A stretch of 20,000 nt of DNA from an uncultured virus (IMG/VR IMGVR_UViG_3300044445_000196) (IMGVR_UViG_3300044445_000196); one strand, 5' to 3'. Counted from the stretch's first letter, positions 1,871 through 18,872 are shown. Numbers and translations: made by a program. The notes: a model not told the origin generated them from the letters alone.

Positions 1871-2492
1871 CCGTGTCGGCGTGGTCGCGGAAGCCCCACC
1901 ACCGGTCGGTGTCGGACAGGGTGGCTCCAACCACCAGGCTCCCGCGCCACTCCGCCTCCCCCATGGACGTGAGCTGTTGACGCCAGAACTCCCGCTCGGG
2001 TATGGACGCGCGCTTCGTCTCCGCGACCGTCAGCGCCTGTTCGGAAACCCTCTCGAGCTCGGGGCCTTCGAGATCCTGGATCGAGCCGTCGTAGTCGAGG
2101 TGCTCGTAGTAGAGCGCGGCGACACCGCGGCGCATCCCGTCACGGAACTCTGCGGCCTCCTCGTCGTGCGACGCGAGCGAATCCGCGTCGCGGATCCAGG
2201 CGCGCGTTGCCGCCACCCGCTCCCGGCCCGCGACGCCGCGGGAGAGTTTGCCGTCCTGCACCGAGAAGACCAGCGGGTCGATGTACTCGTCGAAGACAGC
2301 GAGCCGCCCCCTCTTCACCTCGGTGACGTCCTCGCGGTCAATTCGGGGGTCCACCGGCGGGCGCGCTTCCCCGCCGGGCAGAGACGCAATCTCCGAGCGC
2401 CCGATGGCGAGCTCGGGTGCGCTGTGGTGCGCCTGCGCGAACCGCCCGGTACGGCCGTGGCGGGGATGCTGGGGCTCGTCGAAGGAGGTCAT
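1854..2492 (-). CDS. Hypothetical protein with shared N-terminal HPR..G.F..SAPE tag (212 aa)
   Basis: Begins MTSFDEPQHPRHGRTGRFAQAHHSAPELAI. The start is 10 nt after CCGCGCA. Confidence 0.75.
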   Translation of the reverse strand: MTSFDEPQHPRHGRTGRFAQAHHSAPELAIGRSEIASLPGGEARPPVDPRIDREDVTEVKRGRLAVFDEYIDPLVFSVQDGKLSRGVAGRERVAATRAWIRDADSLASHDEEAAEFRDGMRRGVAALYYEHLDYDGSIQDLEGPELERVSEQALTVAETKRASIPEREFWRQQLTSMGEAEWRGSLVVGATLSDTDRWWGFRDHADTVISER

Positions 2493-2502
2493 GATCGCCA
2501 TG

Positions 2503-2518
2503 TGCGCGGCGCCGCGCA
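2503..2518. promoter_or_regulatory. Back-to-back CCGCGCA motifs forming a perfect 16-bp palindrome between divergent genes
   Basis: TGCGCGGCGCCGCGCA. Each half lies exactly 10 nt from an ATG (2492 on minus, 2529 on plus). Confidence 0.75.
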
Positions 2519-2528
2519 TGGAGGAGCC

Positions 2529-3224
2529 ATGACCCCGACTGAGCCCGAAGCCGCCAATACCCCCATGCTGACCGAAGAGGCCGGCAACTCCATCCTCGAC
2601 ACCATCGCCGAAACGATGCTGCCGATGAAGAACGAAGCCGGGGACTGGGTCGACCTCCCCACGAACCAGCGTCTGAGCGCAGCCTTCGGCCCGCTTGCTG
2701 AGACGGTCGCCCGCATGATCTTCCTCGCCGCTGCCAGTGGCCACGACGCGGGTCTGCTCGCTGTCACCCCGTCCGGGGAGCGCACCGACATCCTCGCCGC
2801 TGGGCTGCGTCGTGTGCACACGGCCGACATGTTCGGCGACTGCGTCGAGGACGGTGACCACTACCCCTGCAAGACCGCGCGCATCCTTGACCTCGTCGCC
2901 GGGGCCCCCGAGCCCACCAGCGCAGGCGAAGCACCCGATGGCGCGCTCGAGGAGCAGACGCTCGGTCTTCGCGACCTCACCTTCCCGACCGAGGACGAAG
3001 CCGCGTTCATCGGTGACACGGTCATCCTCGGCATGGTCCGCCGCGACCAGCTGCAGGCGGGCGACACCGTGCTCACCGCGCAGTACGGCGTTCGCACTGT
3101 GCAGTCCGTGAACGTCCTCGGAACGACCGTCACGGTCGCCTACGAGCCCGCGGACGCCGAAGCCGCCCCCACGGAGTCTCACCCTGTCGACGCGCGCGTG
3201 CCGCTCGTGGATTCTCGCGACTGA
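2529..3224 (+). CDS. Hypothetical protein (231 aa)
   Basis: MTPTEPEAANT..., preceded by GGAGGAG and the CCGCGCA motif. Contains H...CVEDGDHYPC (possible metal site) and a C-terminal beta-rich segment (LQAGDTVL...VRTVQSV). Confidence 0.7.
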   Translation: MTPTEPEAANTPMLTEEAGNSILDTIAETMLPMKNEAGDWVDLPTNQRLSAAFGPLAETVARMIFLAAASGHDAGLLAVTPSGERTDILAAGLRRVHTADMFGDCVEDGDHYPCKTARILDLVAGAPEPTSAGEAPDGALEEQTLGLRDLTFPTEDEAAFIGDTVILGMVRRDQLQAGDTVLTAQYGVRTVQSVNVLGTTVTVAYEPADAEAAPTESHPVDARVPLVDSRD

Positions 3225-3245
3225 GGGCCAGCGGCAAGCTCTGCC

Positions 3246-4064
3246 CTACAGCAGCGAACGGAAGCTCGTGCGCAGCAGCACCCGCTGCAGCCCGGCGCGC
3301 GCTGCGGAGACCGCGGCCGCGGGGTCCTGGGGCACTGCCGGTGCCGGGGTGGCGAACCCTGACCCGTGGCAGAGCGCGTACGCGAACACATCGGCGCCGA
3401 CCGAGCCGCTCGCGACAGCGCCGAGGGCGCGGGCGAGTCCCCACGCCTTCTGCTCCTCGCTCTGCCCGTGGATGAGGGTGAGCACTCGACGGGAGGTGGG
3501 CGCGGCGTCGCGGCGGCTCTCCACGGCGTAGCCCAGGGCGGCGGCGGCCGCGCGCAGGTCGTCGACGAACCCGACGGGCGCGCCCTCGCTGAGCTTCGAC
3601 CAGGGGCGTTCGAGTTGCGCGCCGGAGGTGGCGGTGTAATCGAACATCGTTGCTGGCCGGTGCCATGCCTCCTCGACGACCAGCCGCCCACCGTCCCAGA
3701 CGGGGCGCCCGTTCTCACGCTTGACCCGCATCGACGGGGTGAGGACAGCGATGCCACGCTCGATGGTGCGCCGCTGCTGCGCCTGCCATCCGCGATGTGT
3801 GGACAGCCAGGTGGCGTGCGGCTGCTGGTCAAGGACCAGAAGGATGTTCGCCGGGCTCAGCCGGGGGAAGCGCGCGAGGCCGTCGAGGTACCGCGTCCAG
3901 GCGTCCGGCTCGTGCCACGAGCTCATGCCGCGGGCGACGACACCCAGCATCTCGGCCAGCCGGGCTTTCCGATCCGGGATGTCGTTGAACGAGTGCAGGG
4001 GGCGGGCTCGCTGGGCCCGCTCACGCAGGTCGGTGGGGGTCATCGTCGCAGTCACATCGGTCAC
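3246..4064 (-). CDS. ArdC N-terminal-like ssDNA-binding domain protein
   Basis: WTRYLDGLARFPRLSPANILLVLDQQPHATWLSTHRGWQ...GIAVLTP...MFDY matches the ArdC-N (DUF1738-like) pattern. No HExxH in the C-terminal half. Confidence 0.7.
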   Translation of the reverse strand: MTDVTATMTPTDLRERAQRARPLHSFNDIPDRKARLAEMLGVVARGMSSWHEPDAWTRYLDGLARFPRLSPANILLVLDQQPHATWLSTHRGWQAQQRRTIERGIAVLTPSMRVKRENGRPVWDGGRLVVEEAWHRPATMFDYTATSGAQLERPWSKLSEGAPVGFVDDLRAAAAALGYAVESRRDAAPTSRRVLTLIHGQSEEQKAWGLARALGAVASGSVGADVFAYALCHGSGFATPAPAVPQDPAAAVSAARAGLQRVLLRTSFRSLL

Positions 4065-4113
4065 GTATCGCTCGTCTCGTCCAGTGGCGAGATCGTAGCG
4101 ACCACCTCCGACA

Positions 4114-4971
4114 TCACATCTTCGCGAGCGACTCCTGCACCATCCGCTGCCCGACGAGACGGTCGTGTGCGGCCTTCCGGACCGGCTCGTTCTCGCTGGT
4201 CGCGAGAGCTTCGACGACGTCCTGCGGGGTGTCAGAGCGGAGCGCGAGTCGGTACAGCGCGTACGTCAGCTCGATGTCTTCGTCGTCGTCGTCGTCGAGC
4301 CGGCGGTCGCGCGCGGCGATGCCGCGGAGGTCCGTCTCGGTCAGCTGCGGGTTGTCGATGATGTGGTGCAGGCGGTCCTCGCGCTGCAGCTCGTCATCGA
4401 GGACGGCGCGGCTCAGGTTCGGGTGCTTCCCGGAGTGGGTGATGCGCTGGTCCCACGCGCGGTCGACCAGGTCGGTGGGGCTATGCGGGTTGCCGACGAC
4501 GCCGGTGAGCACGAGCCGGGATTCGGTGTACTCGGGGTGCGCATCGAGCGCGGCGTAGAACGTGTCGGGGTGGACGTTCGGGTGTTGCAGCGCGGCGATC
4601 CGGGTCTCCCAGTCGTACGCGCGGTCGGTGGTGATGGCGAGCTCGTGAAGAACCGGCGGCGGGGTGTGAGGGTTCAGTGCCACCTCGTGTGCGGGCCCGT
4701 GGACGCGGTCTTCGGCGTGGATGGCGAGCAGCGCACGGTCGGTGGTGGTGCGGGCGCTATCAGAGCGCGCGGCGAGGCTCTCCCCGAGCGCCCAATGGGC
4801 GGCGCGGGCGTCGGGGTCGGTGACGAGGTCGAGGTACTGGCCGCGCATCACCCGGTTGTGCGTGGCGATGTCGCGCTCAGGCGCAGCGAGGGTGACCTCG
4901 GGAGCGCTGACGGTCTTGGTGGTGAAAGTGCCGTCGGTGGCGCGGGGGTGCTCGCGGTCGTTGAAGCTCAT
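4114..4971 (-). CDS. SAPE-tagged protein with LRV/HEAT-like helical repeats (285 aa)
   Basis: Begins MSFNDREHPRATDGTFTTKTVSAPEVTL with a GGAG RBS. Repeated units ALNPHTP, LQHPNVH, VGNPHSP, KHPNLS, IDNPQLT, RSDTP. Confidence 0.75.
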   Translation of the reverse strand: MSFNDREHPRATDGTFTTKTVSAPEVTLAAPERDIATHNRVMRGQYLDLVTDPDARAAHWALGESLAARSDSARTTTDRALLAIHAEDRVHGPAHEVALNPHTPPPVLHELAITTDRAYDWETRIAALQHPNVHPDTFYAALDAHPEYTESRLVLTGVVGNPHSPTDLVDRAWDQRITHSGKHPNLSRAVLDDELQREDRLHHIIDNPQLTETDLRGIAARDRRLDDDDDEDIELTYALYRLALRSDTPQDVVEALATSENEPVRKAAHDRLVGQRMVQESLAKM

Positions 4972-5000: not shown

Positions 5001-5297
5001 TCAGGCGGCTTCGCGGGTGCTCCACCCGCACTTGGTGCAGGTGCCGCGGCGGATGGTGCCTTCACGGCGGCGGCCGGTGACGAGGGACTTCGTCAGACAG
5101 GGGTCCCGGTCTGCGTGGAGGGGGCAGAGCATTGGGGTGACGGTGCTGTCGCGATTGACCGCGCAGGCGCACCCCTTCTCCCGGACGAATGCGGGCGGTG
5201 CGGGCGCGACGTCCAGGCTCAGCTCGGGGGCGCTGTGCCGCTTGTCCGTGAAGGTGCCATTGCCAGCGCGGGGGTGCTCGCGGGTGTCGAAGGTCAT
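5001..5297 (-). CDS. SAPE-tagged small Cys-rich (putative Zn-binding) protein
   Basis: Begins MTFDTREHPRAGNGTFTDKRHSAPELSL. Contains CAC...CPLH...C...CTKC. GGAGG RBS; starts 1 nt after the upstream stop. Confidence 0.75.
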   Translation of the reverse strand: MTFDTREHPRAGNGTFTDKRHSAPELSLDVAPAPPAFVREKGCACAVNRDSTVTPMLCPLHADRDPCLTKSLVTGRRREGTIRRGTCTKCGWSTREAA

Positions 5298-5298
5298 C

Positions 5299-5649
5299 TC
5301 AGTCCTCCAGGGCGACGGTGATGGTGATGTCCCCGTCCTCGTCGGTGATGGTGAAGTCGGGGTCGGCGTCGAAGTCGGCGAAGGCGTTCGCAGTGTCGCG
5401 CTCGAAGATGACGGGGGTGGGCCCGCCGGTGGGGATGCCGCGGCCGTTGCGGTCGGCGTACCGGCTGAAGAGGAGCGCGTGCGCCTCGGGGTCGTAGTAC
5501 AGGTGCGCTGTGCGCGCTCCGATGGGGGCGTCCTGGCGGATGCGGTCGGCAGCGTCGACGTGCAGGGGCGCTTCGGGGGCGCTCTGGGTCTTGTCGGTGA
5601 AGCGACCGGTGCGCTCGCGCGGGTGCGCGGTCTCGACGAAACCGCTCAT
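5299..5649 (-). CDS. SAPE-tagged small protein with acidic C-terminus
   Basis: Begins MSGFVETAHPRERTGRFTDKTQSAPEAPL. ATGA overlap with the upstream gene. Confidence 0.75.
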   Translation of the reverse strand: MSGFVETAHPRERTGRFTDKTQSAPEAPLHVDAADRIRQDAPIGARTAHLYYDPEAHALLFSRYADRNGRGIPTGGPTPVIFERDTANAFADFDADPDFTITDEDGDITITVALED

Positions 5650-5879
5650 GAGTCGAAGTCTTCGAGGTCGAGGAGCTCGGCCTCGTAGCCGCCCATGTAC
5701 TCGTCGATGTGCGCTCCGGGGTTGGCGGCGCGGCCCTGGCGGGCGTCGGCGACGCCGCGCTCGTGGGCGTCCTCTTCCGTCTCGGCGGACAGGTCGAGCT
5801 CGGGGGCTGTGTGCTGCTGCGCGCCGAAGCGGCCGCTGGCGTGGCGGGCGGCTTCTCGGGCGGTGTCGACGGTGGTCAT
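5646..5879 (-). CDS. SAPE-tagged small acidic protein (77 aa)
   Basis: Begins MTTVDTAREAARHASGRFGAQQHTAPELDL. The start is 10 nt after CCTCGTA. Confidence 0.75.
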   Translation of the reverse strand: MTTVDTAREAARHASGRFGAQQHTAPELDLSAETEEDAHERGVADARQGRAANPGAHIDEYMGGYEAELLDLEDFDS

Positions 5880-5889
5880 GGCCACCATG

Positions 5890-5896
5890 TACGAGG
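5890..5896 (-). promoter_or_regulatory. Upstream motif instance CCTCGTA(CAT)
   Basis: 10 nt before ATG 5879; heads the operon of four tagged genes. Confidence 0.6.
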
Positions 5897-5903: not shown

Positions 5904-6257
5904 TCAGGCCTGGTCGGCGCGGACGATGTCGAGGATCTGTTGGAGCGCGGCGTCGGAGAGGTTGGCGAAGCGGTAGTTGCTGTGGCCGTAGGCGACGCCG
6001 TGCGCGCTCAGCTCCTGGACCATCTCCGAGCGACGGGCCTCGGCCGCCTGCTCATCCTCGGTGCGGATGAACATGGCCGGGCCCGCGGTGTCTGCCCGGC
6101 GCTTCTCGACACCCGTGGTCTTGTCGAAGGAGATCTCGCGGCCGAAGTACATGACGCCGACGTTGACGCGTCCGACCCGAGTGATGGTGGCCTTCCGGGT
6201 GCGCCCGTCGTGGTTCAGGATGACTTCCTGGTCGAGGGTGAATCGTTCGCTGGACAT
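5904..6257 (-). CDS. Hypothetical beta-rich phage/plasmid-type protein (117 aa)
   Basis: MSSERFTLDQEVIL...ATITRVGRVNV...FDKTTG. CGGAG RBS; CCGCGCA at 6301-6307. Confidence 0.7.
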   Translation of the reverse strand: MSSERFTLDQEVILNHDGRTRKATITRVGRVNVGVMYFGREISFDKTTGVEKRRADTAGPAMFIRTEDEQAAEARRSEMVQELSAHGVAYGHSNYRFANLSDAALQQILDIVRADQA

Positions 6258-6300
6258 CTGGTGCGCTCCGTTCAGGTAGTGGACGACTGCACCCCGTCCA

Positions 6301-6307
6301 TGCGCGG
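6301..6307 (-). promoter_or_regulatory. Upstream motif instance CCGCGCA(TGG)
   Basis: Intergenic, 43 nt before ATG 6257, which has its own RBS. Confidence 0.55.
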
Positions 6308-6539: not shown

Positions 6540-6970
6540 GCGGCCACGGGGTACAGCTGGTCGGGTCCTGCCCACACTTCACGGTCCTCGTTGCACGGCC
6601 CGTCGTGCTCGCAGGCGAGGATGCACCAGTCGTCGTCCGGGCAGCTGAACGCGGCGGCATCCCCCTGGTCGGCGACCTCGTAGCGACCGTCGGCGCGCAG
6701 CCGCAGCATCCCTCCGAAGGTGGGGTCCCAGAAGATCTGGCTTGCGCGCAGCAGAAGACGGCGGGCGGCGCGGATGTCGGCGGTGGTCCACTCGGGATCC
6801 GGGTCGCGGCGGGGATTCGTTGCCGCGTCGGTGTTCCAGTGTTCCGCGAGGGCGTACGCCCCGAACGCGTCAGGGACCGTGAGCTGGTCTCCGGCGATGC
6901 GGAGACCGTTCAGGGCGAGGTTTGCGGGGACGGCGGGGTTACCCCGCTCGCTGTTGCTGCGGAACGGCAC
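6536..6970 (-). CDS. Hypothetical protein with Cys/His-rich C-terminus
   Basis: GAAAGGA RBS before GTG. C-terminal CPDDDWCILACEHDGPC. Confidence 0.65.
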   Translation of the reverse strand: MPFRSNSERGNPAVPANLALNGLRIAGDQLTVPDAFGAYALAEHWNTDAATNPRRDPDPEWTTADIRAARRLLLRASQIFWDPTFGGMLRLRADGRYEVADQGDAAAFSCPDDDWCILACEHDGPCNEDREVWAGPDQLYPVAA

Positions 6971-7015
6971 GAGTCGGTCCTTTCAGAGCCGCGGCGTGCG
7001 GCGTCCTGTGTCCCA

Positions 7016-7022
7016 TGCGCGG
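7016..7022 (-). promoter_or_regulatory. Upstream motif instance CCGCGCA(TGG)
   Basis: Intergenic, 45 nt before GTG 6970. Confidence 0.55.
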
Positions 7023-7046
7023 TCCCACGTCGGGCACGTGCCCGGC

Positions 7047-7511
7047 TCAGTCGCGCAGGTGCGTGAGCGCGTGCTGAGCCCAGGCGTCTGTCCGGGCACG
7101 CCAGTGCTCGACGTCCGTTTCGTCGCGGGGTGCGCCGATGGCGTCGGCGAGGTCGGTGCGGATGTCGGGGGTGCAGGCGTCGTCGTCGCCGTCGTGGAAG
7201 GTGGATTCGATCTGCGCGGCCCACTGTTCGGCAGTGTCGCCGTGCTCGATTCGTGCTTCACGGAACGCTTCGAGGATGGGGTTGTCCTCGGGCGAGCGAG
7301 GAGTGAGGTCGTCGATGTCGCGCAGGTGCCAGGGGACGCCGGTGACGAGGGGCTGCGACGGAAGCGCGGGGCGCTCGGGCGCGGTGGCGCGCGGGTGGGC
7401 GGGGACGGCGGTGATGGCGACCTCGGGGGCGGAGGTCGCCTTGACGCTGAACCGTCCGCTGCTCTCGCGCGGGTGGTCGGTGGGTGCCCAGGCGGTGATG
7501 GTGTCGGTCAT
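7047..7511 (-). CDS. SAPE-tagged hypothetical protein (154 aa; alternative start 7520)
   Basis: Begins MTDTITAWAPTDHPRESSGRFSVKATSAPEVAI. The start is 10 nt after CCGAGTA. Confidence 0.75.
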   Translation of the reverse strand: MTDTITAWAPTDHPRESSGRFSVKATSAPEVAITAVPAHPRATAPERPALPSQPLVTGVPWHLRDIDDLTPRSPEDNPILEAFREARIEHGDTAEQWAAQIESTFHDGDDDACTPDIRTDLADAIGAPRDETDVEHWRARTDAWAQHALTHLRD

Positions 7512-7516
7512 GCCGG

Positions 7517-8470
7517 TCATGTACTCGGCAGCTCGTCGAGGTACGCGACCGCGTCCAGGCCCGCGACTGCTCCGCTGCCGGCGGCGGTGATGGCCTGCCG
7601 GTAGATGGGGTCGATGACGTCGCCGGCGGCGAAGAACCCGGCGGTGGGGTACGCGACGCCGGGGACCACGGAGGTGCGTCCGATGGTGCAGATGGTGCCG
7701 TGCTCGCTGAGGGCGACCTGCCCTTGGACGAGGTCGGTGCGGGGGTCGCTGCCGATGGCGATGAACAGTCCGGTCACCTCGAGCACCTCGTCGATGGTGG
7801 CGGTGTGCTCGATGAGGACGGAGCGGAGCGCTCCGTCGTGCTCGTCGAGGATGGCGACGGTGCTGTCGAGGATGAGGGTGATGTTCGAGGTGGCGTGGAC
7901 GCGGTCCTGCATGGCCTTGGATGCGCGAAGTCGGTCGCCGCGCGCGACGATGTAGACGGTGTGGGCGTACTTGGCGAGGGCGAGGGCTTCCTCCATCGCG
8001 GAGTCTCCCCCGCCGACGACGGCGACGTACGCTCCGGCGAAGAAGGGCGCGTCGCAGGTGGCGCAGTAGCTGACTCCGCGGCCGGTGAGCGTTTCCTCGT
8101 TCGGGAGTCCGAGGGTGCGGTGCTGACTGCCGGTCGCGAAGATGACGGCGTCGAAGCCAATGGTGTCCCCTGCCGCGGTCGTGGCGGTCTTGCCTGCGAC
8201 GTCGAGGCGGGTGATGTCGTCGAAGCGGATGTCGGCGCCGGCTTCGATGGCCTGCTCCTGCATTCGTTCGATGAGCTCGGGGCCCTGGATGCCGCCGGGG
8301 AAGCCCGGGAAGTTGTCGACGGATGTCGTTGTGGTCAGGTCGCCGCCGGGGCGTTCCATGCCGGTGTAGACGACGGCGGGGTGTCCGGCGCGCCCGGCGT
8401 AGATGGCGGCGGTGAGCGCTGCGGGTCCGGCGCCGATGATGAGCAGGGGGATGTGCGACGAGGAAGGCAT
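7517..8470 (-). CDS. trxB: Thioredoxin-disulfide reductase
   Basis: FAD-binding IIGAGPAALTAAIY, VDNFPGFP, redox-active GVSYCATCD, nucleotide-binding VVGGGDSAMEEA, C-terminal FAAGDV..YRQAITAAGSG. Confidence 0.95.
   Translation of the reverse strand: MPSSSHIPLLIIGAGPAALTAAIYAGRAGHPAVVYTGMERPGGDLTTTTSVDNFPGFPGGIQGPELIERMQEQAIEAGADIRFDDITRLDVAGKTATTAAGDTIGFDAVIFATGSQHRTLGLPNEETLTGRGVSYCATCDAPFFAGAYVAVVGGGDSAMEEALALAKYAHTVYIVARGDRLRASKAMQDRVHATSNITLILDSTVAILDEHDGALRSVLIEHTATIDEVLEVTGLFIAIGSDPRTDLVQGQVALSEHGTICTIGRTSVVPGVAYPTAGFFAAGDVIDPIYRQAITAAGSGAVAGLDAVAYLDELPST
7522..7528 (-). promoter_or_regulatory. Upstream motif instance CCGAGTA(CAT), inside the 3' end of trxB
   Basis: 10 nt before ATG 7511. 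Confidence 0.5.
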
Positions 8471-8476: not shown

Positions 8477-8914
8477 CTATGCGCGCCCCTCCTGCTGAGT
8501 TCGCAACTGCGCGAACTTCTCAGCGCGCTCGGCTCGTGAGCTCTGCAGGCGGGTGATGCTCTGGACGAGGGCGGCGTACCAGCCGTCGAAGGGGATGAAG
8601 TGATGACCGTCGGCCGCGTATTGGCGCGCCCAGCGCGCCTCGTCGAGGTCGGCGACGCCGAGGGCGATGAAGTGCTCGAGAGCGCCGAGCAAGCCGTGGA
8701 CGCTCCACTGGTTGTGCAGCTGCAGACCGACCGTGCCGTCCGCGTAGGTATGGGGAGTGGCGCGTCGAAGGGCGCCTTCGACGCAGCTGAGGCAGGTCGC
8801 ACCAACGTAGGAGCGCCCGGCGCGTCTGAAGGTGCCGCCGCCGGTACGCGCAACCGGGTAGGTGTGCTCGCGGCGGAGCCTGCAGTACCGGCAAGTGCTT
8901 CTGGTCGGCGTCAT
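8477..8914 (-). CDS. Hypothetical protein with two CxxC pairs (putative Zn finger)
   Basis: CRYC...CLSC. The start is 10 nt after CCGCGCA (8925-8931). Confidence 0.65.
   Translation of the reverse strand: MTPTRSTCRYCRLRREHTYPVARTGGGTFRRAGRSYVGATCLSCVEGALRRATPHTYADGTVGLQLHNQWSVHGLLGALEHFIALGVADLDEARWARQYAADGHHFIPFDGWYAALVQSITRLQSSRAERAEKFAQLRTQQEGRA
8480..8486 (-). promoter_or_regulatory. Upstream motif instance GCGCGCA(TAG)
   Basis: 9 nt before the trxB ATG. Confidence 0.55.
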
Positions 8915-8924
8915 GCATGCCCCA

Positions 8925-8931
8925 TGCGCGG
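8925..8931 (-). promoter_or_regulatory. Upstream motif instance CCGCGCA(TGG)
   Basis: 10 nt before ATG 8914. Confidence 0.6.
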
Positions 8932-8948
8932 CAATGGCAGCCGTCCCG

Positions 8949-9764: not shown

Positions 9765-9773
9765 GCCCGCCTA

Positions 9774-9780
9774 TGCGCGC
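9774..9780 (-). promoter_or_regulatory. Upstream motif instance GCGCGCA(TAG)
   Basis: 9 nt before ATG 9764. Confidence 0.55.
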
Positions 9781-9842: not shown

Positions 9843-11351
9843 TCAGCGGCCGAGCTTGGGCTGCTGCGCGACGGGCCACGCCCACACGCTGGCGGCGAAG
9901 CGCGGGTAGGTCTTCACGGCCTTGACGTCCCAGCCGCTCAGGTTCTGCGAGTAGCGGTACGCGTTGCGGAACATGTCACCCATGTCCGTCACCTTGGCGG
10001 TGTTCCAGCCGGCGAGGTTCTGGTTGAAGAACTCCGCGTTGATGAACATGGCGTTCATGTCGGTCACGTTCGTGGTGTCGAAGGTGCTGATGTCCTGGTT
10101 GAACAGCTTCGCGAACGCGAACATGCTGCGCATCGTGGTCGCCTTCGAGGTGTCCCACGTGGACAGCGGCTGGTTGAACTTCGCCGCCTGGTGGAAGGCC
10201 CCGCTGAAGTCGGTCACGTTGGACGTGTCCCAGTTGTCGAGCGGCTGGTCGAACGCGGCCGCACCCTGGAGCACGTTGCCGAGGCTCACCACGGAGCTGG
10301 TGTCCCAAGAGTTCAGCGGCTGGTTGAAGCGCGTGGCCCCCGCGAACATCTGGCTCATGTCCGTGACGCTCGAGACGTCCCAGCTCGAGATGTCCTGGTT
10401 GAACCAGGGGTTCGACTCGAACATGTTGGCCGTCGTCGTGACCTTGGAGGTGTCCCAGGTGCCGAGGGGCTTGTTGTAGTTGGTGGCCCGGAACATGCCC
10501 ACCATGCGCTCGACGTTCGAGGTGTCCCAGCCGGAGATGTCCTGGTCGAAGGAGGTCGCCTGGTCGAACATGTTGCTCAGGTGCGTGGCGCTCGAGGTGT
10601 CCCAGCCCCCGATGGGCTGGTTGAAGGACTTGTTGTTCCAGAACATCGACCCGAACTGCTTGACGTTCGAGGTGTCCCAGTTGCCGATGGGCTGGTTGAA
10701 CGACCCGACGCTGAACATGTTGGTCATGTACTCAGCGGAGGAGGTGTCCCACTTGTCGAGCGGGCGGTTGTACTGCGAGTACCCGAACGTGTTGTGGAAG
10801 TTGGTGACCTGGGAGACGTCCCAGTCGTTCAGCGGGCTGTTCATCTGGGTCGCGCCGTAGAAGGCGTTCATCATGCTGGTGACGCCGGCCGGGATGGTGG
10901 CGGGGACGGAGCGCAGCCACTTCATGTTGTAGAACGCGTAGTCCAGGCTCGTGAGACCGGGGTTGCCGCTCAGCTCGGGCATGGCCCGGAAGCAGTCCTG
11001 CTGGACGCCGGTGCCGGACACACGCGAGTCGATGCCGGTGAAGGTGCCCTCGAAGGTCACCTTGTACTGGCCGTACGCGCCGACCGGGATGGCGGGGATG
11101 TTGCCGTCGAACGTGGTGGCGGTGTCCCACGTGCGACCGTCGCTGACGGTGGTCTTGCCGACGGCGTTCACCAGGGGCAGCTTGACGGAGGTCGCGACGT
11201 TGCACTGGAGGTCGAAGACGACCTTGCCGCCGGTGGCGGTGACCGCCGGTGCGGGAGTGTCGGCGGCGTTGGCGGGGACGGCGGAGAGAAGGGACATGGT
11301 CACGGCTGCGGCGGCGACGAGTGCGCCCCCGAGACGGGTCTTGCGATTCAC
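9843..11351 (-). CDS. Secreted BspA-family / DUF285 repeat protein (502 aa)
   Basis: GTG start after GAAAGAAAG. Sec signal peptide MNRKTRLGGALVAAAAVTMSLLSAVPANA, then about 13 copies of the FNQPLxxWDTSxVxxMxxMF repeat. Confidence 0.9.
   Translation of the reverse strand: MNRKTRLGGALVAAAAVTMSLLSAVPANAADTPAPAVTATGGKVVFDLQCNVATSVKLPLVNAVGKTTVSDGRTWDTATTFDGNIPAIPVGAYGQYKVTFEGTFTGIDSRVSGTGVQQDCFRAMPELSGNPGLTSLDYAFYNMKWLRSVPATIPAGVTSMMNAFYGATQMNSPLNDWDVSQVTNFHNTFGYSQYNRPLDKWDTSSAEYMTNMFSVGSFNQPIGNWDTSNVKQFGSMFWNNKSFNQPIGGWDTSSATHLSNMFDQATSFDQDISGWDTSNVERMVGMFRATNYNKPLGTWDTSKVTTTANMFESNPWFNQDISSWDVSSVTDMSQMFAGATRFNQPLNSWDTSSVVSLGNVLQGAAAFDQPLDNWDTSNVTDFSGAFHQAAKFNQPLSTWDTSKATTMRSMFAFAKLFNQDISTFDTTNVTDMNAMFINAEFFNQNLAGWNTAKVTDMGDMFRNAYRYSQNLSGWDVKAVKTYPRFAASVWAWPVAQQPKLGR
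9905..10850 (-). repeat. About 13 tandem 23-25-codon coding repeats (DUF285 type)
   Basis: Recurrent GTGTCCCA...GGCTGGTTGAA on the + strand with a period of roughly 72-75 bp. Confidence 0.85.
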
Positions 11352-11498: not shown

Positions 11499-11533
11499 CT
11501 ACATGCGCGGTCTCTCGCGCTGGCGTGACCGTT

Positions 11534-12223
11534 TCAGTCCTCGTCGAGGTACCCTTTCGCGCGGTCCACGAGCGCGTCGGTGTCGACCCCGCGTGCGCGC
11601 AAGTGGGTGAGGATGTCCGCGATGGCGTCGGCGGCATTGTCCTCGAGCTCCGCGTCATCCGACCCGTGCAGGCCGATGAGCGTTGCGCCGCGCTCGGCGG
11701 CCGCGGCGGTGTAGGCCTCGTCGCTGTGGTCTGCAGGCGCGGGTGCCTCAGTCGCAGCGGCGACCCATCCCTTCATCGACGCGGTCGCGACGGCGCTCGT
11801 AGCGGCGTCTGAGCTCGAAGTCACATGGCCCTGCACGGCGCGGAGGTACGTCGCGATCTCCTCGTCGACGTCGTCACCGAGTCCGGTGGGCTCGTCTTCG
11901 AAGCTGGACCACTCGTCGTCGTACTCGTCGGACCCGCCGAGGGAGACGTGCACCTCGTCACGCTCGTCGGTGGCCGGGAACGTGATCGACACGAAGGGGC
12001 GACCGCTGCTGTCCTCGAGGTCGGCGGTGACGACACCGCCGGCAGGGATGGTGCTCGGGTACGGGATGTGCGGTGCGGTGTTCGGTGTGTAGTGCCCGAT
12101 AGTGGGCACGGTCCGCGGTGCACCGAGCGCCGCTTCCGGGGCGGAGTGGTTCTGGGCGCCGAAGCGGCCAGTGGCTTGGCGGGCTGCTTCGCGGGCGGCG
12201 TCGTGGGGGTCGTTGATGTGCAT
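11534..12223 (-). CDS. SAPE-tagged acidic hypothetical protein (229 aa)
   Basis: Begins MHINDPHDAAREAARQATGRFGAQNHSAPEAAL. The start is 10 nt after CCGCGTA (12234-12240). Confidence 0.75.
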   Translation of the reverse strand: MHINDPHDAAREAARQATGRFGAQNHSAPEAALGAPRTVPTIGHYTPNTAPHIPYPSTIPAGGVVTADLEDSSGRPFVSITFPATDERDEVHVSLGGSDEYDDEWSSFEDEPTGLGDDVDEEIATYLRAVQGHVTSSSDAATSAVATASMKGWVAAATEAPAPADHSDEAYTAAAAERGATLIGLHGSDDAELEDNAADAIADILTHLRARGVDTDALVDRAKGYLDED

Positions 12224-12233
12224 GCCCCCGATG

Positions 12234-12240
12234 TACGCGG
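12234..12240 (-). promoter_or_regulatory. Upstream motif instance CCGCGTA(CAT)
   Basis: 10 nt before ATG 12223. Confidence 0.6.
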
Positions 12241-12646: not shown

Positions 12647-13906
12647 CTACTCCCCCGCCGCGGCCCCTGCGGGAGGGGTCGCCGTTGCTGTCGTTTCTGG
12701 GGTCGGCGTCGCCGTCGGGATGGGCGTGCTGGTCGGGGTCGGGCTGGGGGTGGCCGTCGGGGTGGGGGTCGCTGTCGGGGTGGGAGTCGCGCTGGGGGTC
12801 GCTGTCGGGGTGGGAGTCTCGGCGCGCTGGCGGTCCTCCTCGGCGCGCCGAGCCGCTTCCTCAGCTTCACGGCGCGCGGCCTCTTCCGCCGCCTTCTTCG
12901 CCGCTTCCTCGGAAGCCTTGCGAGCTGCCTCCTCGCGGAGCACCTTCGTGTGGGAGGCTTTCGCGCCGGCGACGGCGCTCTGGTATGCGAGGAACCGTTC
13001 GATGGGGTCGAGTGTGCTCTGGGTGAGCTGGTCGATGCTGGACCTCAGGGCCGCCTTGGCTGCGGGCTCGGCCTTCGGGTAGGTGCGCAGCTTCGATCCG
13101 TAGTCGGCGGCGGATGCGAGCACGTCCTCGGTGAGGGCCCGGGCGTGCAGCATTTGCACGTCGAGGGCGTCCACGCTCCCGGTGAGCTCGTCGCGCTTGG
13201 TGTCCAGGCGGAAGGCGACCTTCGCGTTCAAGCGGGAGGCGAGCGTCAGCCCCGATGTCGTGGCCGGGTCCGTTTCCCCCGGCAGCAGCGGGGCCAGCCC
13301 TGGGGTGGGGACGCTGAGGGTGCCGTTGATCTCGCGCAGGTCGGCCTGTTCGCTGAGCGGGCCGGGGATGCTCGCGAGTTCATCGAGGGCGGAGGTGCTG
13401 GACAGAAGCCCCCGGTCGATGACGGCGACGAACGCTTCGATATCGCCGCGGGTGCGAAGCGCGCCCTCGGATGCGGTGCGGAAGGCGCCCTGCGCGCCCT
13501 GGAGTCCGGCGCTGGCTTCCTGCATCTGTGAGCGCGTGGCGGTGACATCGGCGACGAGCTGTTCATAGCGGAGCGCGTCGAGGACTGGCGGCCCGATGAT
13601 TCCCGCGACGATGAGGCCGGCGACAGCCATGGTGGCGGGGCGCCGGTACCGACGGAAGCTGTGTCCGCCCGTGCGCTCGCGCGGTACGCGGCGGAGGCCC
13701 GCTTCGCGTGCGGCGACCCGACGAGCGTTCTCAGCTGCTACCTCGCGGTAGTGCTTCCAGTCCTTCTCGGCCCAGTCGTCCGGGTGCCCCGCGTAGGTGG
13801 GCAGTGGGAGCTCCCGTAAGCGCGCGGGGATCCGCGCGGGGCGCGCGCTGCGCTTCTGCCGCAAGGGCTGCAGCAGGTCGTTCAGCATGTCGTCGTTGTC
13901 GGTCAC
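12647..13906 (-). CDS. Membrane-anchored coiled-coil protein with Pro/Thr-rich tail
   Basis: GAGGAG RBS. One hydrophobic segment (MAVAGLIVAGIIGPPVL), long helical region, EEAAR/K repeats and a TP/TA-repeat tail. Confidence 0.75.
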   Translation of the reverse strand: MTDNDDMLNDLLQPLRQKRSARPARIPARLRELPLPTYAGHPDDWAEKDWKHYREVAAENARRVAAREAGLRRVPRERTGGHSFRRYRRPATMAVAGLIVAGIIGPPVLDALRYEQLVADVTATRSQMQEASAGLQGAQGAFRTASEGALRTRGDIEAFVAVIDRGLLSSTSALDELASIPGPLSEQADLREINGTLSVPTPGLAPLLPGETDPATTSGLTLASRLNAKVAFRLDTKRDELTGSVDALDVQMLHARALTEDVLASAADYGSKLRTYPKAEPAAKAALRSSIDQLTQSTLDPIERFLAYQSAVAGAKASHTKVLREEAARKASEEAAKKAAEEAARREAEEAARRAEEDRQRAETPTPTATPSATPTPTATPTPTATPSPTPTSTPIPTATPTPETTATATPPAGAAAGE

Positions 13907-13958
13907 GTCACTGGCTCCTCGGTACGCCCAGGCGCGGGCGGTGCGAGGGGCCTATGCG

Positions 13959-14333
13959 CTACCGCAGGACGGTGAAGGTCGCGTCCCGGTGGAAGGTGAA
14001 GTCAACCGGCTCGCCGCCGTCGAGGTCGAAGGTGATGGCGTCGTCGGTGTGCCCGTCTTCGTCGGCGCGCTTGCGGCTGATGACGGTCAGCGCCTGCGGA
14101 TACCCCGCGGCGGCCCACCGCCTCCGGAGGTCGCGGGAGCGGCTGAGCGGGTAGTCGAAGTAGCTGCGCCCGTCGGCGTTGGGGGCCGTCTCCACCCGGT
14201 CGCCGGGTTCCACTTCGCGGGCGGTCAGGGCGAGGGTGTGAGGAAGGGTCGCTTCGGGCGCGGAGTGTTCCTGCGCGCCGAACTTGCCGTCGCGGTGGCG
14301 GGCGGTCTCGCGTCGCTGTTCCTGCTCGCTCAT
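13959..14333 (-). CDS. SAPE-tagged small protein with SH3/KOW-like beta segment
   Basis: Begins MSEQEQRRETARHRDGKFGAQEHSAPEATL with a GGAGG RBS. Contains AREVEPGDRV. Confidence 0.75.
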   Translation of the reverse strand: MSEQEQRRETARHRDGKFGAQEHSAPEATLPHTLALTAREVEPGDRVETAPNADGRSYFDYPLSRSRDLRRRWAAAGYPQALTVISRKRADEDGHTDDAITFDLDGGEPVDFTFHRDATFTVLR

Positions 14334-14402
14334 GTGTGCCTCCGGGGCGTTGGGGTCTCACCCATCCTGCCGTCGACGGCGAGTGGGTCATCATCCCCCA
14401 TG

Positions 14403-14409
14403 TACGAGG
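14403..14409 (-). promoter_or_regulatory. Upstream motif instance CCTCGTA(CAT)
   Basis: Just past the helicase stop and 69 nt before ATG 14333. GCCTCGTACATGG is identical to the copy at 5885-5897. Confidence 0.55.
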
Positions 14410-16517: not shown

Positions 16518-16527
16518 CTGAGGGCTA

Positions 16528-16534
16528 TGCGCGG
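16528..16534 (-). promoter_or_regulatory. Upstream motif instance CCGCGCA(TAG)
   Basis: 10 nt before GTG 16517. Confidence 0.6.
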
Positions 16535-16557
16535 CGGCGGTCAGCCGCCTGCACCAT

Positions 16558-16673
16558 GGTCAGAGCCGCCCGGTTGGGAGTCATCCCGGGCGGCTCTGGT
16601 GCTTCCATGCGCGGTGCACGGTCGCGGGTGGTGAGAACCGCCCGGGCGTGGACACAACCCGGACGGCTCTGGT
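16558..16673. repeat. Two tandem copies of a 43-44 bp palindromic element
   Basis: 16558-16600 GGTCAGAGCCGCCCGG-N11-CCCGGGCGGCTCTGGT and 16630-16673 GGTGAGAACCGCCCGG-N12-CCCGGACGGCTCTGGT. Confidence 0.75.
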
Positions 16674-16678
16674 CGGTG

Positions 16679-17986
16679 TCAGCGGTTCGCGGCCGCCCAG
16701 CGCTCGTTGGCGAGCATCGTGGCGGCCATGGCCACCAGCTCGTTGCCGTAGTGCTGGCCGCCGCCGTAGCCCCGCCCGAAGTTGAACGAGCCGGCGGAGG
16801 TGCGGAAGCCGTTCTCCTCGCTCGCGCGCTGGTAGAACGCCTGCGGGATCTCGCGCGGGGTGTCGCGGTGCTTTGGGTCGAAGTCGATGCCTTCGGCGGC
16901 GTATGCCTGGACAAGGAACGCCTCGGCATCCCGGGTGGTCTCGTCGGAGAACTCGCGGTTGACGAAGATGAAGTCGGGCCCGTAGCTGACGGACTGTGGG
17001 ATGCCGTCGGCGTCGTGCTCGGCACTGCGGATGTAGTCCTTGGAGTCCGTCATGCCGTCGAACGTGGCGCCGGAGTAGGCCTTGGCGACCGGTTCGGCGT
17101 CCTGCAGGGGCGGTCCGTCGACGTAGCTGACGTGCGTGGACGAGCCTCCGGCGTAGCTGTCCCCGCGGACGGAGAACTTCGTCTTGCCGAACGCGGTCTT
17201 CAGGTCCTGGCGGATGAGCGTGTTGGTGTCCTTCAGCGACACGTGCTTGGTGGGGCGCAGACGTCGGATGGTCTGCTCAGCGCGGGCGCGGTCCTCCTCG
17301 AGCGCGTCATCCCACACGGCGTCGGTGAGGGGGCCGAGGTGCGCCTCCTGGGCGTCGCGGTTCTCCCGGTCCGCCTGCTCGCGCTCGGCGCGCGAGCGGT
17401 GGATCTCCGCCGCGGCGGACTCGCCGAGGGTGCCCTTCGCCTGCTCGGCGCGGGCCCAGTTCAGCATGTACCCGAGGCTCTCGTCGTGGTAGTCCTTCAC
17501 GTCGTACCCGCGGGCGTCGATGAGGAGGGTGATGGCGTTCTTGACGTCGGGGTCGGTCTCGCGGTCGAGAGCGCTCGGCTCGTCCGTGTCGACGGCGAGG
17601 GCGGCCTGGCGGGCCTGGTACTCCTCCTGCGTGCGGCGGTTCGCGGCGTCACGGGCGAGGCCGTCCTGGATCTCGGCGAGCGATTTCTCCGGGATGTCGT
17701 CGCGGTCGATGCCGGCACGGCGGAGCAGGTCGGACAGCTCGAGGCGCCGTGCGGTGGCTTCACGCTCTTCGGGGGTACCGGTGTAGGTGTCCCGGGTGGG
17801 TGCGTCGAGGCTCACCTGCGCGGCGGTGAGGTCGTCGTCCAGCTCGCCGAGCTCGTTCATCTCGGTGAAGATGTCGTCGAGGCTCAGCTCGGGGGCGGAG
17901 TGTTCCTGCTCGCCGAACTTGCCGTCGTTCTGACGTGCGGCCTCGCGGCGGGCGGCGAAGCGGGCGGTTGCGTCGATGAGTGCCAT
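16679..17986 (-). CDS. SAPE-tagged protein with C-terminal LPD29 (large polyvalent protein-associated) domain (435 aa)
   Basis: Begins MALIDATARFAARREAARQNDGKFGEQEHSAPELSL. IRQDLKTAFGKTKFSVRGDSYAGGSSTHVSYVDGP...ATFDGMTD...FIFVNREFS matches the LPD29 pattern as I recall it. Confidence 0.8.
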   Translation of the reverse strand: MALIDATARFAARREAARQNDGKFGEQEHSAPELSLDDIFTEMNELGELDDDLTAAQVSLDAPTRDTYTGTPEEREATARRLELSDLLRRAGIDRDDIPEKSLAEIQDGLARDAANRRTQEEYQARQAALAVDTDEPSALDRETDPDVKNAITLLIDARGYDVKDYHDESLGYMLNWARAEQAKGTLGESAAAEIHRSRAEREQADRENRDAQEAHLGPLTDAVWDDALEEDRARAEQTIRRLRPTKHVSLKDTNTLIRQDLKTAFGKTKFSVRGDSYAGGSSTHVSYVDGPPLQDAEPVAKAYSGATFDGMTDSKDYIRSAEHDADGIPQSVSYGPDFIFVNREFSDETTRDAEAFLVQAYAAEGIDFDPKHRDTPREIPQAFYQRASEENGFRTSAGSFNFGRGYGGGQHYGNELVAMAATMLANERWAAANR

Positions 17987-17996
17987 GCCGCCTATG

Positions 17997-18003
17997 TGCG
18001 CGG
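17997..18003 (-). promoter_or_regulatory. Upstream motif instance CCGCGCA(CAT)
   Basis: 10 nt before ATG 17986. Confidence 0.6.
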
Positions 18004-18024
18004 CGGCCCCGCGAGGCGTGCGGG

Positions 18025-18855
18025 TCAGCGGGTGGTTGGGGGAAGTTCCCAGAGTCCGCCATGGCGGTCGGTCTCCACGAACGCCTCGTGCTCGTGACCG
18101 CGGATGTTCGAGGCGGCCCAATCGAGCTCGTCCCAGTCCACGTCGAGGTCCTCCGCATCCGCTCCGCGAAGCTCGCTGCCGTCGGCGAAGCGGACACCGA
18201 TGGGGTTCAACCACCGCCCGCCCTGGTCGGTCTCCTCGAGTAGAAGGGTCGCGCCGGCCGGGAGATCGCGGCGGAGGGTGTCCACCAGTTGCGCGGGGGT
18301 CTGCTCGTCGACAGGCACCCGCCCGGCGTTTGCGGCGGCGTCGCGGAGGGTGTCGAGGTAGGCCTCGCGCGAGGGCTCGTCGTTCGGGTCGATGCCGGCA
18401 CGGATGACGTCACGCGATGTCGCGGTCGTACCGGGCAGGATGATGTCGAGGTCGGAGTTGTAGTGCGGGTCCGCGGCGTCGGTGATTTCCGCCTCGCGCT
18501 GCAGACGCTCGAAGTTGGTCTCGACGCGGATTTTGTGATGCCCGGCAGCGATGCCTGCGGCGTTGACTTCGGTGTTCCAGTGGCCCGGGCCGTAGCCGAC
18601 GGTGACGCTCTTGGAGTCGGGGTGGCCGGGGCCTTCATCGCGGCGCTGGACGATGCAGGGGTAGTCGCGGCCGTCCTGGGTGAGGATGACACTTGCTCCC
18701 GGCTGCAGGGTGCTCATGATGTGGCGGGCTTCGGCCAGGGTGGGTGTTCCGACGGCGAGTTCGGGGGTGCTGCGCTCGTGGGAGGCGAACGACCCGGCGT
18801 TGGAGGATGCGGTGGTGGCGCCGCGGCGGACCGCGCGCTCGTCGAAGGTGGCCAT
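18025..18855 (-). CDS. Hypothetical protein with divergent SAPE-type tag (276 aa)
   Basis: Begins MATFDERAVRRGATTASSNAGSFASHERSTPELAV. The start is 10 nt after CCGCGCA. Confidence 0.75.
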   Translation of the reverse strand: MATFDERAVRRGATTASSNAGSFASHERSTPELAVGTPTLAEARHIMSTLQPGASVILTQDGRDYPCIVQRRDEGPGHPDSKSVTVGYGPGHWNTEVNAAGIAAGHHKIRVETNFERLQREAEITDAADPHYNSDLDIILPGTTATSRDVIRAGIDPNDEPSREAYLDTLRDAAANAGRVPVDEQTPAQLVDTLRRDLPAGATLLLEETDQGGRWLNPIGVRFADGSELRGADAEDLDVDWDELDWAASNIRGHEHEAFVETDRHGGLWELPPTTR

Positions 18856-18865
18856 GCCCGTGATG

Positions 18866-18872
18866 TGCGCGG
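18866..18872 (-). promoter_or_regulatory. Upstream motif instance CCGCGCA(CAT)
   Basis: 10 nt before ATG 18855. Confidence 0.6.

Follow-up and report, generated by a model that had tools for sequence, protein, structure and literature searches.

Variants of a start-proximal motif separate peptide-tagged from untagged genes in a family of megaplasmid-like elements of Micrococcales

The 20,000-nucleotide (nt) stretch of DNA analyzed here (the window) belongs to IMG/VR record IMGVR_UViG_3300044445_000196, cataloged as an uncultured virus, and it raises the question of why two variants of one short motif stand ahead of two different sets of its genes. A sequence-only reading had proposed that GYACAT (here the T type) precedes genes whose products begin with a shared peptide tag and that GCATR (the U type) precedes the others; the tagged proteins would form a transcriptional (temporal) class of their own, or promoter and tag would spread as one head module of ~100 bp grafted onto new genes. 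The association is confirmed as real, far beyond chance, and general to a megaplasmid-like family of Micrococcales. The interpretation is partly supported, and a regulon and a grafted head are not mutually exclusive.

Motif variants and tagged genes in the window

The window is 69% G+C, and its genes lie almost exclusively on the minus strand. Ten of the proteins (T1 to T10) start with ..HPR...G.F..K..SAPE..L or ..AREAAR...G.FG.Q.HSAPE..L, with G.F lying 13 to 21 residues after the start and all 10 tags ending within the first 37 residues. The 28 genes of the window were defined by hand; a simple gene caller of our own misplaced T1 and missed the gene at 19465. A tag profile made blind to promoters matched the 10 tagged proteins at E ≤ 8e-5 and no further protein, the best of the remaining 18 reaching 0.17. 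The tagged genes are as follows.

1854..2501, minus strand: T1, tag ..FDEPQHPRHGRTGRFAQAHHSAPELAI, likely start 2492, with an in-frame ATG at 2501 within the motif; no Pfam family
4114..4971, minus strand: T2, operon internal, weak match to LRV repeats
5001..5297, minus strand: T3, operon internal
5299..5649, minus strand: T4, operon internal
5646..5888, minus strand: T5, likely start 5879, first in the operon
7047..7520, minus strand: T6, likely start 7511
11534..12223, minus strand: T7
13959..14333, minus strand: T8
16679..17986, minus strand: T9, the one tagged protein of the 10 with an LPD29 domain (large polyvalent protein associated domain 29)
18025..18855, minus strand: T10, with the most divergent tag, ..SNAGSFASHERSTPELAV

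Seven T-type sites stand ahead of them.

2500..2505, minus strand: GCACAT, context GCCGCGCACAT, 7 nt ahead of ATG 2492 (T1)
5887..5892, minus strand: GTACAT, context GCCTCGTACAT, 7 nt ahead of ATG 5879, heading the operon T5-T4-T3-T2
7519..7524, minus strand: GTACAT, context GCCGAGTACAT, 7 nt ahead of ATG 7511 (T6)
12231..12236, minus strand: GTACAT, context GCCGCGTACAT, 7 nt ahead of ATG 12223 (T7)
14400..14405, minus strand: GTACAT, context GCCTCGTACAT, leadered, 66 nt ahead of ATG 14333 (T8), with GGAGG before the start
17994..17999, minus strand: GCACAT, context GCCGCGCACAT, 7 nt ahead of ATG 17986 (T9)
18863..18868, minus strand: GCACAT, context GCCGCGCACAT, 7 nt ahead of ATG 18855 (T10)

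The U-type sites are the following.

2514..2519, plus strand: GCGCAT(GG), 9 nt ahead of ATG 2529 of an untagged gene
6300..6305, minus strand: GCGCAT(GG), 42-nt leader, Phage_ProQ_C-like gene starting at 6257
7015..7020, minus strand: GCGCAT(GG), 44-nt leader, gene starting at 6970
8479..8484, minus strand: GCGCAT(AG), 8 nt ahead of ATG 8470, thioredoxin reductase
8924..8929, minus strand: GCGCAT(GG), 9 nt ahead of ATG 8914
9773..9778, minus strand: GCGCAT(AG), 8 nt ahead of ATG 9764, D12 adenine methyltransferase
11503..11508, minus strand: GCGCAT(GT), upstream of a DUF285/BspA-like secreted protein of uncertain start
13954..13959, minus strand: GCGCAT(AG), 47-nt leader, gene starting at 13906
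16527..16532, minus strand: GCGCAT(AG), 9 nt ahead of GTG 16517, SNF2 helicase
16607..16612, minus strand: orphan GCGCAT(GG), located after T9 and ahead of the helicase promoter; a hairpin (13-bp stem) follows it
19252..19257, minus strand: weaker CCGCAT(AGG), form CCGCATAGG, 10 nt ahead of ATG 19241 of an untagged gene
19505..19510, minus strand: GCGCAT(GT), 39-nt leader, gene starting at 19465
19563..19568, plus strand: GCGCAT(GG), 9 nt ahead of ATG 19578, DUF6283 gene

Every tagged gene that heads a unit thus carries GYACAT, six of them at 7 nt and one at 66 nt, as the sequence-only reading had it, and the three other tagged genes (starts 5649, 5297, and 4971) are indeed downstream members of the operon headed at 5879, with no motif of their own. 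The 11 untagged genes that it named with GCATAG, GCATGG, or GCATGT have these forms, and a 12th, starting at 19241, has the weaker CCGCATAGG. All seven T sites belong to tagged genes and none of 13 U sites does (Fisher's exact test, p = 1.3e-5). GYACAT-N7-ATG occurs seven times in the window where 0.06 is expected, a count reached in 0 of 200 shuffles; six of the matches head tagged genes, and one (10716-10731) lies within the DUF285 gene. The hexamer GYACAT occurs 21 times on the two strands, and the other 14 copies are in coding sequence or lack the N7-ATG geometry. GCGCAT[AG][GT] is present 14 times against 2.9 expected, again unmatched in 200 shuffles, with 11 copies before untagged genes, 1 orphan (16605-16612), and 2 inside genes (646-653 and 10502-10509).

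Several details of these sites are recorded as side observations. The intragenic GCGCATGG sites lie in a kinase-like gene (646-653), which has a weak kinase match in PHROGs and an N terminus resembling the HscB J domain, and in the DUF285 gene (10502-10509); they may be chance occurrences or internal promoters. At 2490-2531, a T-type site (minus strand, T1) and a U-type site (plus strand, gene 2529) stand back to back and overlap in a common near-palindromic GC core, GTGCGCGGCGCCGCGCAT, so that the upstream flank of each is that of the other on the opposite strand. The orphan U site is followed by a hairpin (16545-16612) with the stem CAGAGCCGCCCGG..CCGGGCGGCTCTG, after which comes the helicase's own U motif; site and hairpin could correspond to a small transcript, an attenuator, or a T9 terminator.

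The element family

Besides the families listed above, Pfam names among the window proteins include a GIY-YIG nuclease and Lsr2. DNA near-identical to the window was found nowhere among phages and among plasmids only as a match to trxB. Relatives were reached through an alignment of helicase relatives, which led to loci in genomes, IMG/VR, and metagenomes; scans with single proteins returned nothing. Full-length relatives of the helicase (coverage, 91-98%; identity, 36-41%) are encoded on eight circular plasmids of 375-608 kb from Curtobacterium, Arthrobacter, Paenarthrobacter, and Pseudarthrobacter. One of them, pS16 (NZ_CP126255.1), is a complete circular Curtobacterium plasmid of 545,759 bp with 728 genes by our own caller, and its helicase is neighbored by trxB, a type IV coupling protein, SSB, HNH, and NlpC/P60. 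On pACHL01, from Pseudarthrobacter chlorophenolicus A6, dnaE also adjoins the helicase. The IMG/VR "provirus" record G001 has the gene order SSB-HNH-NlpC/P60-helicase, as in pS16, and additionally encodes DnaE, ligases, RtcB, Ter proteins, and WhiB; neither G001 nor G002 has a match to the Phage_capsid family. As relatives of the helicase are carried on plasmids and the gene order is shared without a capsid, the family is read as large conjugative plasmid-like elements of Micrococcales, of which the window copy may be free or integrated, and a phage identity was dropped although IMG/VR labels G001 a provirus. The best explanation of these likenesses is that the window is part of a large plasmid-like element of Microbacteriaceae, in a family whose hosts appear to be soil and leaf actinobacteria.

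Two observations concern the larger proteins of the family. The helicase relatives P0002, P0012, P0058, and L161:10001-13159 are ~1000-1050 amino acids (aa) long with LAGLIDADG_3 inside, and the window helicase has 700 aa without it, which points to an intein inserted in the longer SNF2 helicases. A 1026-aa protein of G001 has no relative in PDB.

The association in related elements and on a complete plasmid

The same division between T and U genes recurs in relatives whose helicases are 36-81% identical to that of the window. In the syntenic locus L161 (helicase, 81% identical), the orthologs of T10, T9, T8, and T7 keep GCACAT, GCACAT, GTACAT, and GTACAT, respectively, with proteins 43-64% identical and diverged spacers, and the orthologs of the helicase, methylase, and g13906 genes keep GCGCATAG. 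The T8 ortholog there has the leaderless form of the T motif, unlike the leadered T8 of the window. In G001, at least 10 genes with tag-like N termini were found by eye behind CCGCGCACA[TC], and more than 20 untagged genes were found behind GCATAG[AG]. In three loci with helicases ~40% identical (L166, L169, and L175), tagged unit-heading genes stand behind CCGCCTACA-N7-ATG, and most untagged genes use ordinary TTGAC-N17-TAnnnT leaderless promoters. Tagged genes of the lower-G+C loci L190 and L191 stand behind CCGCCAACAA, pACHL01 has CCGCACACA before a tagged gene and GCATAG before its helicase, methylase, and nuclease genes, and the NACA core also heads tagged genes in L002.

For counts in the relatives, genes were called with our own caller in 47 of 69 related loci (those over 4 kb), and motifs were classified by the regular expressions C[CG][ACT]ACA-N7-8-start (T) and GCAT[AG]-N7-9-start (U). 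With a first tag profile (E ≤ 0.05), tags were found in the 47 loci in 16 of 46 T genes (plus one C-terminal match), 0 of 68 U genes, and 13 of 902 genes with no motif (plus one match far from the start). In the stricter GC context, a profile match or G.F within 40 residues was present in 25/31 T, 11/68 U, and 104/902 no-motif genes. A second profile was iterated on all 1741 N termini with no promoter information and gathered 70 sequences and 0 reversed decoys (E < 0.003). By this blind profile, 20 of 43 T genes on pS16 are tagged, compared with 0 of 146 U genes and 13 of 539 genes with no motif (T versus U, Fisher's exact test, 2e-15); in the other loci, the figures are 16/45 for T and 1/68 for U (7e-7). 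The sole U match, in L173, has the hybrid GCATACAT, which contains TACA. Inspected by eye, the 33 tagged genes classed as having no motif comprise 17 with a T-like core missed by the regular expression (mostly CCGCACACA), 2 with CCGCACTC, 1 with a GCATAC hybrid, and 13 with no core at all, which are operon internal or lie behind a ribosome site. Neither the raw enrichment of k-mers nor the raw density of the motif in each locus was discriminating. The association therefore does not disappear outside the window, the outcome named beforehand as contrary to it, and holds in every related lineage that was read and across pS16.

Motif anatomy and promoter-like geometry

In window sites aligned on the start codon, both variants share the GC-rich flank GCCGCG, which ends 11-12 nt ahead of the ATG, and the hexamers are followed by N7 after CAT at six T sites and by N8-9 at six U sites. 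The logo of the T sites on pS16 reads cgCCGCGCACAt-N7-ATGAc, with ACA-N8-ATG spacing in 38 of 38 sites. Nine positions of its core, CCGCGCACA, are conserved at 92-100%, the spacer is unconstrained, and nothing upstream is conserved beyond an extended CGCCGCG at -19 to -13. The U logo on the same plasmid is C.GC-N17-cGCATAG-N7/8-start, with CAT-N9/10-start spacing in 142 of 146 sites and partly conserved positions at the -35 distance (C in 73% at -33, G in 55% at -31, and C in 71% at -30). An invariant A stands at -11 relative to the start codon in both classes, and positions -12 to -7 read CATAGR in U and YACAYN in T.

In actinobacteria, leaderless promoters have a TANNNT hexamer placed 6-7 nt ahead of the start codon. 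The hexamers of both classes resemble them in ending 6-7 nt before ATG or GTG, in the A at -11, and in the lack of a Shine-Dalgarno sequence, and they differ from them in having no T at -7, mostly C at -12, and a conserved CCGCG flank. By this geometry, both motifs look like putative -10 hexamers of leaderless promoters. In the window, five U sites and one T site lie 25-66 nt upstream of the start, and at the sites read closely, before 6257, 6970, and 14333, a separate Shine-Dalgarno sequence follows the motif; the occurrence of the motif at such distances from genes with a Shine-Dalgarno sequence of their own fits a promoter and not a translation signal. The idea that the CAT of the T motif merely supplies the real start codon was rejected, as four of the seven window sites read CATC or CATA. 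An in-frame upstream ATG is formed only at sites whose CAT is by chance followed by G; on pS16, T follows ACA in just 47% of the sites, and the downstream ATG is invariant.

Element specificity and the search for a reading factor

The strict T pattern CCGCGYACAY-N7-ATG occurs 17 times on pS16 against 0 in the reversed control, and CGCATAG-N7-8-ATG occurs 64 times, also against 0, so that the plasmid has two distinct consensus sequences, both above reversed controls. In 61 Microbacteriaceae genomes, the latter pattern is found 0-6 times per genome, not above reversed controls (in the 4.5-Mb genome of Microbacterium gorillae, 3 against 3). Since the U pattern is abundant on pS16 and at control level in the host family, the motifs are taken to be signals of the element and not of the host. 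pACHL01 has only 5 strict U matches (control, 0). U and T sites occur throughout pS16, and T sites are more closely packed in the part that runs from 480 kb across the origin to 80 kb, which has 29 of the 43.

With regard to factors that might read these signals, two side observations are noted. The stretch of pS16 at 351-364 kb holds a flagellar cluster (fliG, fliF, flgB, fliD, flagellin, flgK, flgL, and others) that includes a sigma-70 family gene, and few U or T motifs occur within it. P0184, a protein of 2256 aa in which the tag motif occurs five times, also has a sigma-70 region 2 (36.9 bits) and a subthreshold region 4; such a polyvalent protein carrying a sigma domain could be a lead for the redirection of host RNA polymerase.

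The peptide tag and polyvalent proteins

Across the family, the tag is a peptide of ~25-30 residues of the form M[ST]F.E..HPR...G.F..K...(APE)..L or AREAAR...G.FG.Q. No model of it is present in Pfam, PHROGs, or NCBIfam, and a protein atlas search with the tag returned nothing above chance level. A profile of 25 tags matched 602 cluster representatives out of 1.84 billion at E ≤ 0.001. Among the 150 representatives listed, most are 65-500 aa long with the match beginning at residues 1-4, and 18 are 683-4660 aa long with three to eight copies of the motif. In 11 of the large proteins that were scanned, the motif is [FW][DN]E..HPR...G[RK]F..K and repeats every 150-350 residues. Seven of the 11 have a Pfam family above its own cutoff, and copies of the motif lie on both sides of Pfam domains in P0078, P0081, P0085, P0133, and P0184, the five with enough named domains to judge. 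The families in these large proteins are ART-PolyVal, GNAT, SNF2, DUF3990, ADP-ribosyltransferase exoenzyme, LAGLIDADG_3, and sigma-70 region 2, and in a further case a thioredoxin-reductase-like Pyr_redox_2 domain occurs together with a zeta toxin. ART-PolyVal is present in 2 of the 11, and a third falls slightly below the cutoff; others have different conflict domains. On pS16, 38 of 47 T-class or tagged proteins have no Pfam family, and the remaining families are LRV repeats, GmrSD_N, HA, DUF7007, and KTSC, with RNase_T in an untagged exception.

By their domain content, the large tag-motif proteins are classed as polyvalent proteins in the sense given in the retrieved parts of PMC5512222. 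Such proteins are predicted there to enter a new host with the DNA and possibly to be processed (Iyer et al. 2017, PMC5512222), and the retrieved passages contain no mention of the short tag motif (0 occurrences of "conserved motif" and of "linker"). The proteins described here resemble polyvalent proteins as portrayed in those passages in the LPD29 domain of T9 and in the recurrence of the tag motif, at three to nine copies, in ART-PolyVal, SNF2, GNAT, DUF3990, and zeta-toxin proteins, and they differ in being encoded by separate genes, each with an N-terminal motif and, at the heads of units, a promoter of its own. The stand-alone proteins start exactly at the conserved F.E (M[ST]F.E), and given this start and the position of the motif between polyvalent domains, the tagged megaplasmid proteins look like unbundled effector modules of polyvalent proteins. 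By the same comparison, the operon T5-T4-T3-T2 looks like a split polyvalent protein.

Some further observations touch the tag. In L166:175-978, a 268-aa protein without an N-terminal tag stands behind the T motif CCCGCCTACAAT and has a tag-like C terminus, ..TAGSFAPKLGSDPEVSLS (profile E, 1.5e-6). Genes for S53 and S1C peptidases lie near tagged clusters on pS16 and are considered a lead only. A tblastn search of T3 against phages gave a match of the body to Microbacterium phages, and a Stenotrophomonas phage "RNA polymerase" (E, ~0.1) was rejected, its N terminus having no tag. A four-gene block is conserved in L166 (15135-19401), L175 (12749-17967), L169 (13716-17527), and the pACHL01 locus L278 (26113-30795), in the order small membrane protein, protein of 150-160 aa, giant secreted protein of no family (987-1452 aa), and tagged protein; it may be part of a transfer apparatus.

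Evaluation of the explanations

The reading that best accommodates the observed association, geometry, element specificity, conservation, head sharing, and link to polyvalent proteins takes the motifs as promoters of two differently regulated classes, and we regard it as probable, with some reserve. Class U, (C.GC-N17-)cGCATAG or GCGCAT[AG]G, would drive untagged genes such as those for the helicase, methylase, thioredoxin reductase, and coupling protein, and class T, CGCCGCG-[CT]ACA[TC], would be kept for genes of tagged, effector-like proteins, many genes of either class starting 7-10 nt after the motif. The transcription machinery, through a different specificity factor or a regulator, would tell the two hexamers apart, and the tagged modules would be made together as a regulon, to which new members could be added when a head of ~100 bp (T promoter plus tag) is copied onto another body. 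Since the association holds in all lineages read and across one replicon, a separate promoter class is supported at the level of sequence. The tag itself may be a docking signal, a cleavage site, or something else.

Several points weigh against this reading. In searches with Sigma70_r2 and Sigma70_r4_2, no dedicated factor was found, the only hit on pS16 being the flagellar-cluster gene and G001 giving none; a divergent factor may have escaped these searches. The hexamers depart from TANNNT, as the pS16 logos show no preference for T at -7 in either class and have C at -12 (94% of the T sites; every U site, where the regular expression fixes it). On pS16, 12 of 43 T-site genes have neither a profile match nor G.F; 5 of these 12 show tag variants by eye (..TRFGAH.. 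and ..GG.YYF..), which leaves 7 of 43 with no recognizable tag. These seven include an RNase_T exonuclease behind CCGCGTACAT, and at least three of their sites have a weak context. Of 3280 in-frame starts inside genes, 28 match the T expression and 9 the U expression by chance, and gene calls and start choices are those of a simple caller of our own. With many orthologs among the genes counted in relatives, independent events are far fewer than the counts suggest, and, as the tag is N terminal and abuts the promoter, co-inheritance alone gives some association. Finally, the AGG of the U sites lies at a Shine-Dalgarno-like distance, and a role at the RNA level is possible.

In one alternative, the motifs are not promoters but operator-like or RNA-level sites of an element repressor, a translation factor, or an RNA-binding factor, comparable to the stoperators and start-associated sequences of mycobacteriophages. 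The motifs do stand directly before start codons, with the AGG of U sites 6-7 nt before the ATG and a full GGAGG at 2514 or AGGAG at 19252, the hexamers are off the TANNNT pattern, and the sigma factor search was unproductive; a plasmid-specific motif over the -10 element of pMP7017 was read by its authors as a transcription factor site (PMC10832533). However, the distance to the start codon is variable, six window sites being 25-66 nt upstream and three of the genes concerned having a Shine-Dalgarno sequence of their own. U sites have a second, partly conserved element at the -35 distance, T sites have no purine run, and the short intergenic gaps, many under 60 nt, contain no other recognizable promoter, so that we consider this alternative improbable. 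Chance or composition would explain the pattern if short GC-rich words with CAT were common at 69% G+C and the division by tag were a small-sample accident; with both strands counted, the window does contain 21 copies of GYACAT and 25 of GCGCAT, most of them intragenic. The start-codon geometry and the enrichment over shuffles stand against this, as do the zero counts of the reversed patterns on pS16 and the replication of the association out of sample on that whole plasmid, and chance is counted as refuted.

A different account accepts the association and denies its regulatory meaning. In this account, T equals U in function, and the T variant only travels with the tag as one contiguous head spread by duplication, recombination, or gene conversion. 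The head module proposed by the sequence-only reading finds direct support in neighboring pairs of tagged genes, which are 90-100% identical over the first ~60-90 nt of the gene and fall abruptly to ~30% where the tag ends. In the pS16 pair 500495/501076, successive 30-nt blocks are 100, 100, and 93% identical, then 50%, then ~30%, and the same near-identical heads on unrelated bodies are found at 86420/86765 in G001 and 15396/17594 in L002. In addition, 520 of 528 tagged pairs on pS16 have no body homology by BLASTP, and promoter and tag are just 7-21 codons apart. Against hitch-hiking, nine T core positions are 92-100% conserved while the spacer is free and the ~100-nt heads have a median identity of 62%, which also supports, from sequence, the tagged genes as a transcriptional class of their own. 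The NACA core is kept where helicases are 36-44% identical and U-type promoters differ (the TTGAC-N17-TAnnnT of L166, L169, and L175), some genes within operons have a tag and no promoter (three such genes in the window, four in L169), and the T motif occurs with long leaders (window 14405 and the L169 gene at 17545) and before L166:175-978, whose tag-like peptide is C terminal. The tag-coding DNA of the window is ≤77% identical between paralogs, so no recent spread is apparent there. Hitch-hiking of a grafted head thus accounts for part of the pattern and not for the conservation, and as the whole explanation, it is unlikely.

The promoter and regulon reading also allows a bolder extension, which we put forward as doubtful. 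The megaplasmid family would run its own transcription program via a specificity factor that escapes current profiles. The T class and the peptide [FW]xE..HPR...G.F..K would mark ~40-50 effector modules per plasmid. Through the peptide, these modules would be singled out to be processed or loaded into the transfer apparatus, and they would reach the recipient together with the DNA. The polyvalent proteins of phages and conjugative elements at large would then have in this peptide the signal for delivery or processing that has been missing.

Comparison with known systems

Phages such as T4 have temporal promoter classes and packaged proteins that bear an N-terminal capsid-targeting sequence (T4 late genes and internal proteins). 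The elements described here resemble them in an element-specific consensus that differs by gene class and in a short N-terminal peptide on unrelated bodies; they differ in being plasmid-like, with a coupling protein and, in G001, no capsid family, and the peptides are unrelated in sequence. The conjugative megaplasmid pMP7017 of Bifidobacterium breve has a 34-bp motif over the -10 element of 19 promoters (PMC10832533). It resembles the U and T motifs, themselves putatively at -10, in its position, its absence from host chromosomes, and its sharing among related plasmids; unlike them, it is AT rich with a canonical TATACT and forms a single class, with no link to a peptide tag reported in the retrieved portion of that paper. 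Plasmid-encoded proteins move to recipients through F-like type IV systems, as described for pED208 (PMC8406263 and PMC11288057). Such transfer would give a shared tag on many plasmid proteins a possible role; no shared N-terminal signal or dedicated promoter class is described in the abstracts of those papers, and for the present elements, transfer is hypothetical. The literature searched contained no description of the U and T motifs, the peptide motif, or their coupling.

If the promoter and regulon reading holds, these plasmids would represent an unstudied, widespread family of actinobacterial megaplasmids with ~190 promoters of their own grammar per replicon, one sub-grammar being reserved for proteins with a peptide that also punctuates giant polyvalent proteins. 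The family would then offer a handle on how the transcription of large mobile elements is shielded and timed within a host and on how polyvalent effector modules are recognized, cut, or delivered. The T motif together with the tag would provide a sequence rule for listing candidate delivered or anti-defense proteins of Micrococcales plasmids, most of which have no family today.

Other features

Contigs from a single public DNA run (X7) match the flanks of two window stretches, 6984-7122 and 8487-8945, at 95-99% and, in place of the stretches themselves, have different sequence of comparable length (114 and 478 letters). The latter stretch corresponds to an entire untagged gene (8477-8914), and the exchanges look like cassette replacement between promoters. 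In two elements, a tRNA-like sequence (..GGTTCGAGTCCC.. / ..GGTTCGAATCCTG..) ends a few bases before the T motif of a tagged gene, at ~40.7 kb of G001 (minus strand) and ~488.2 kb of pS16 (plus strand).

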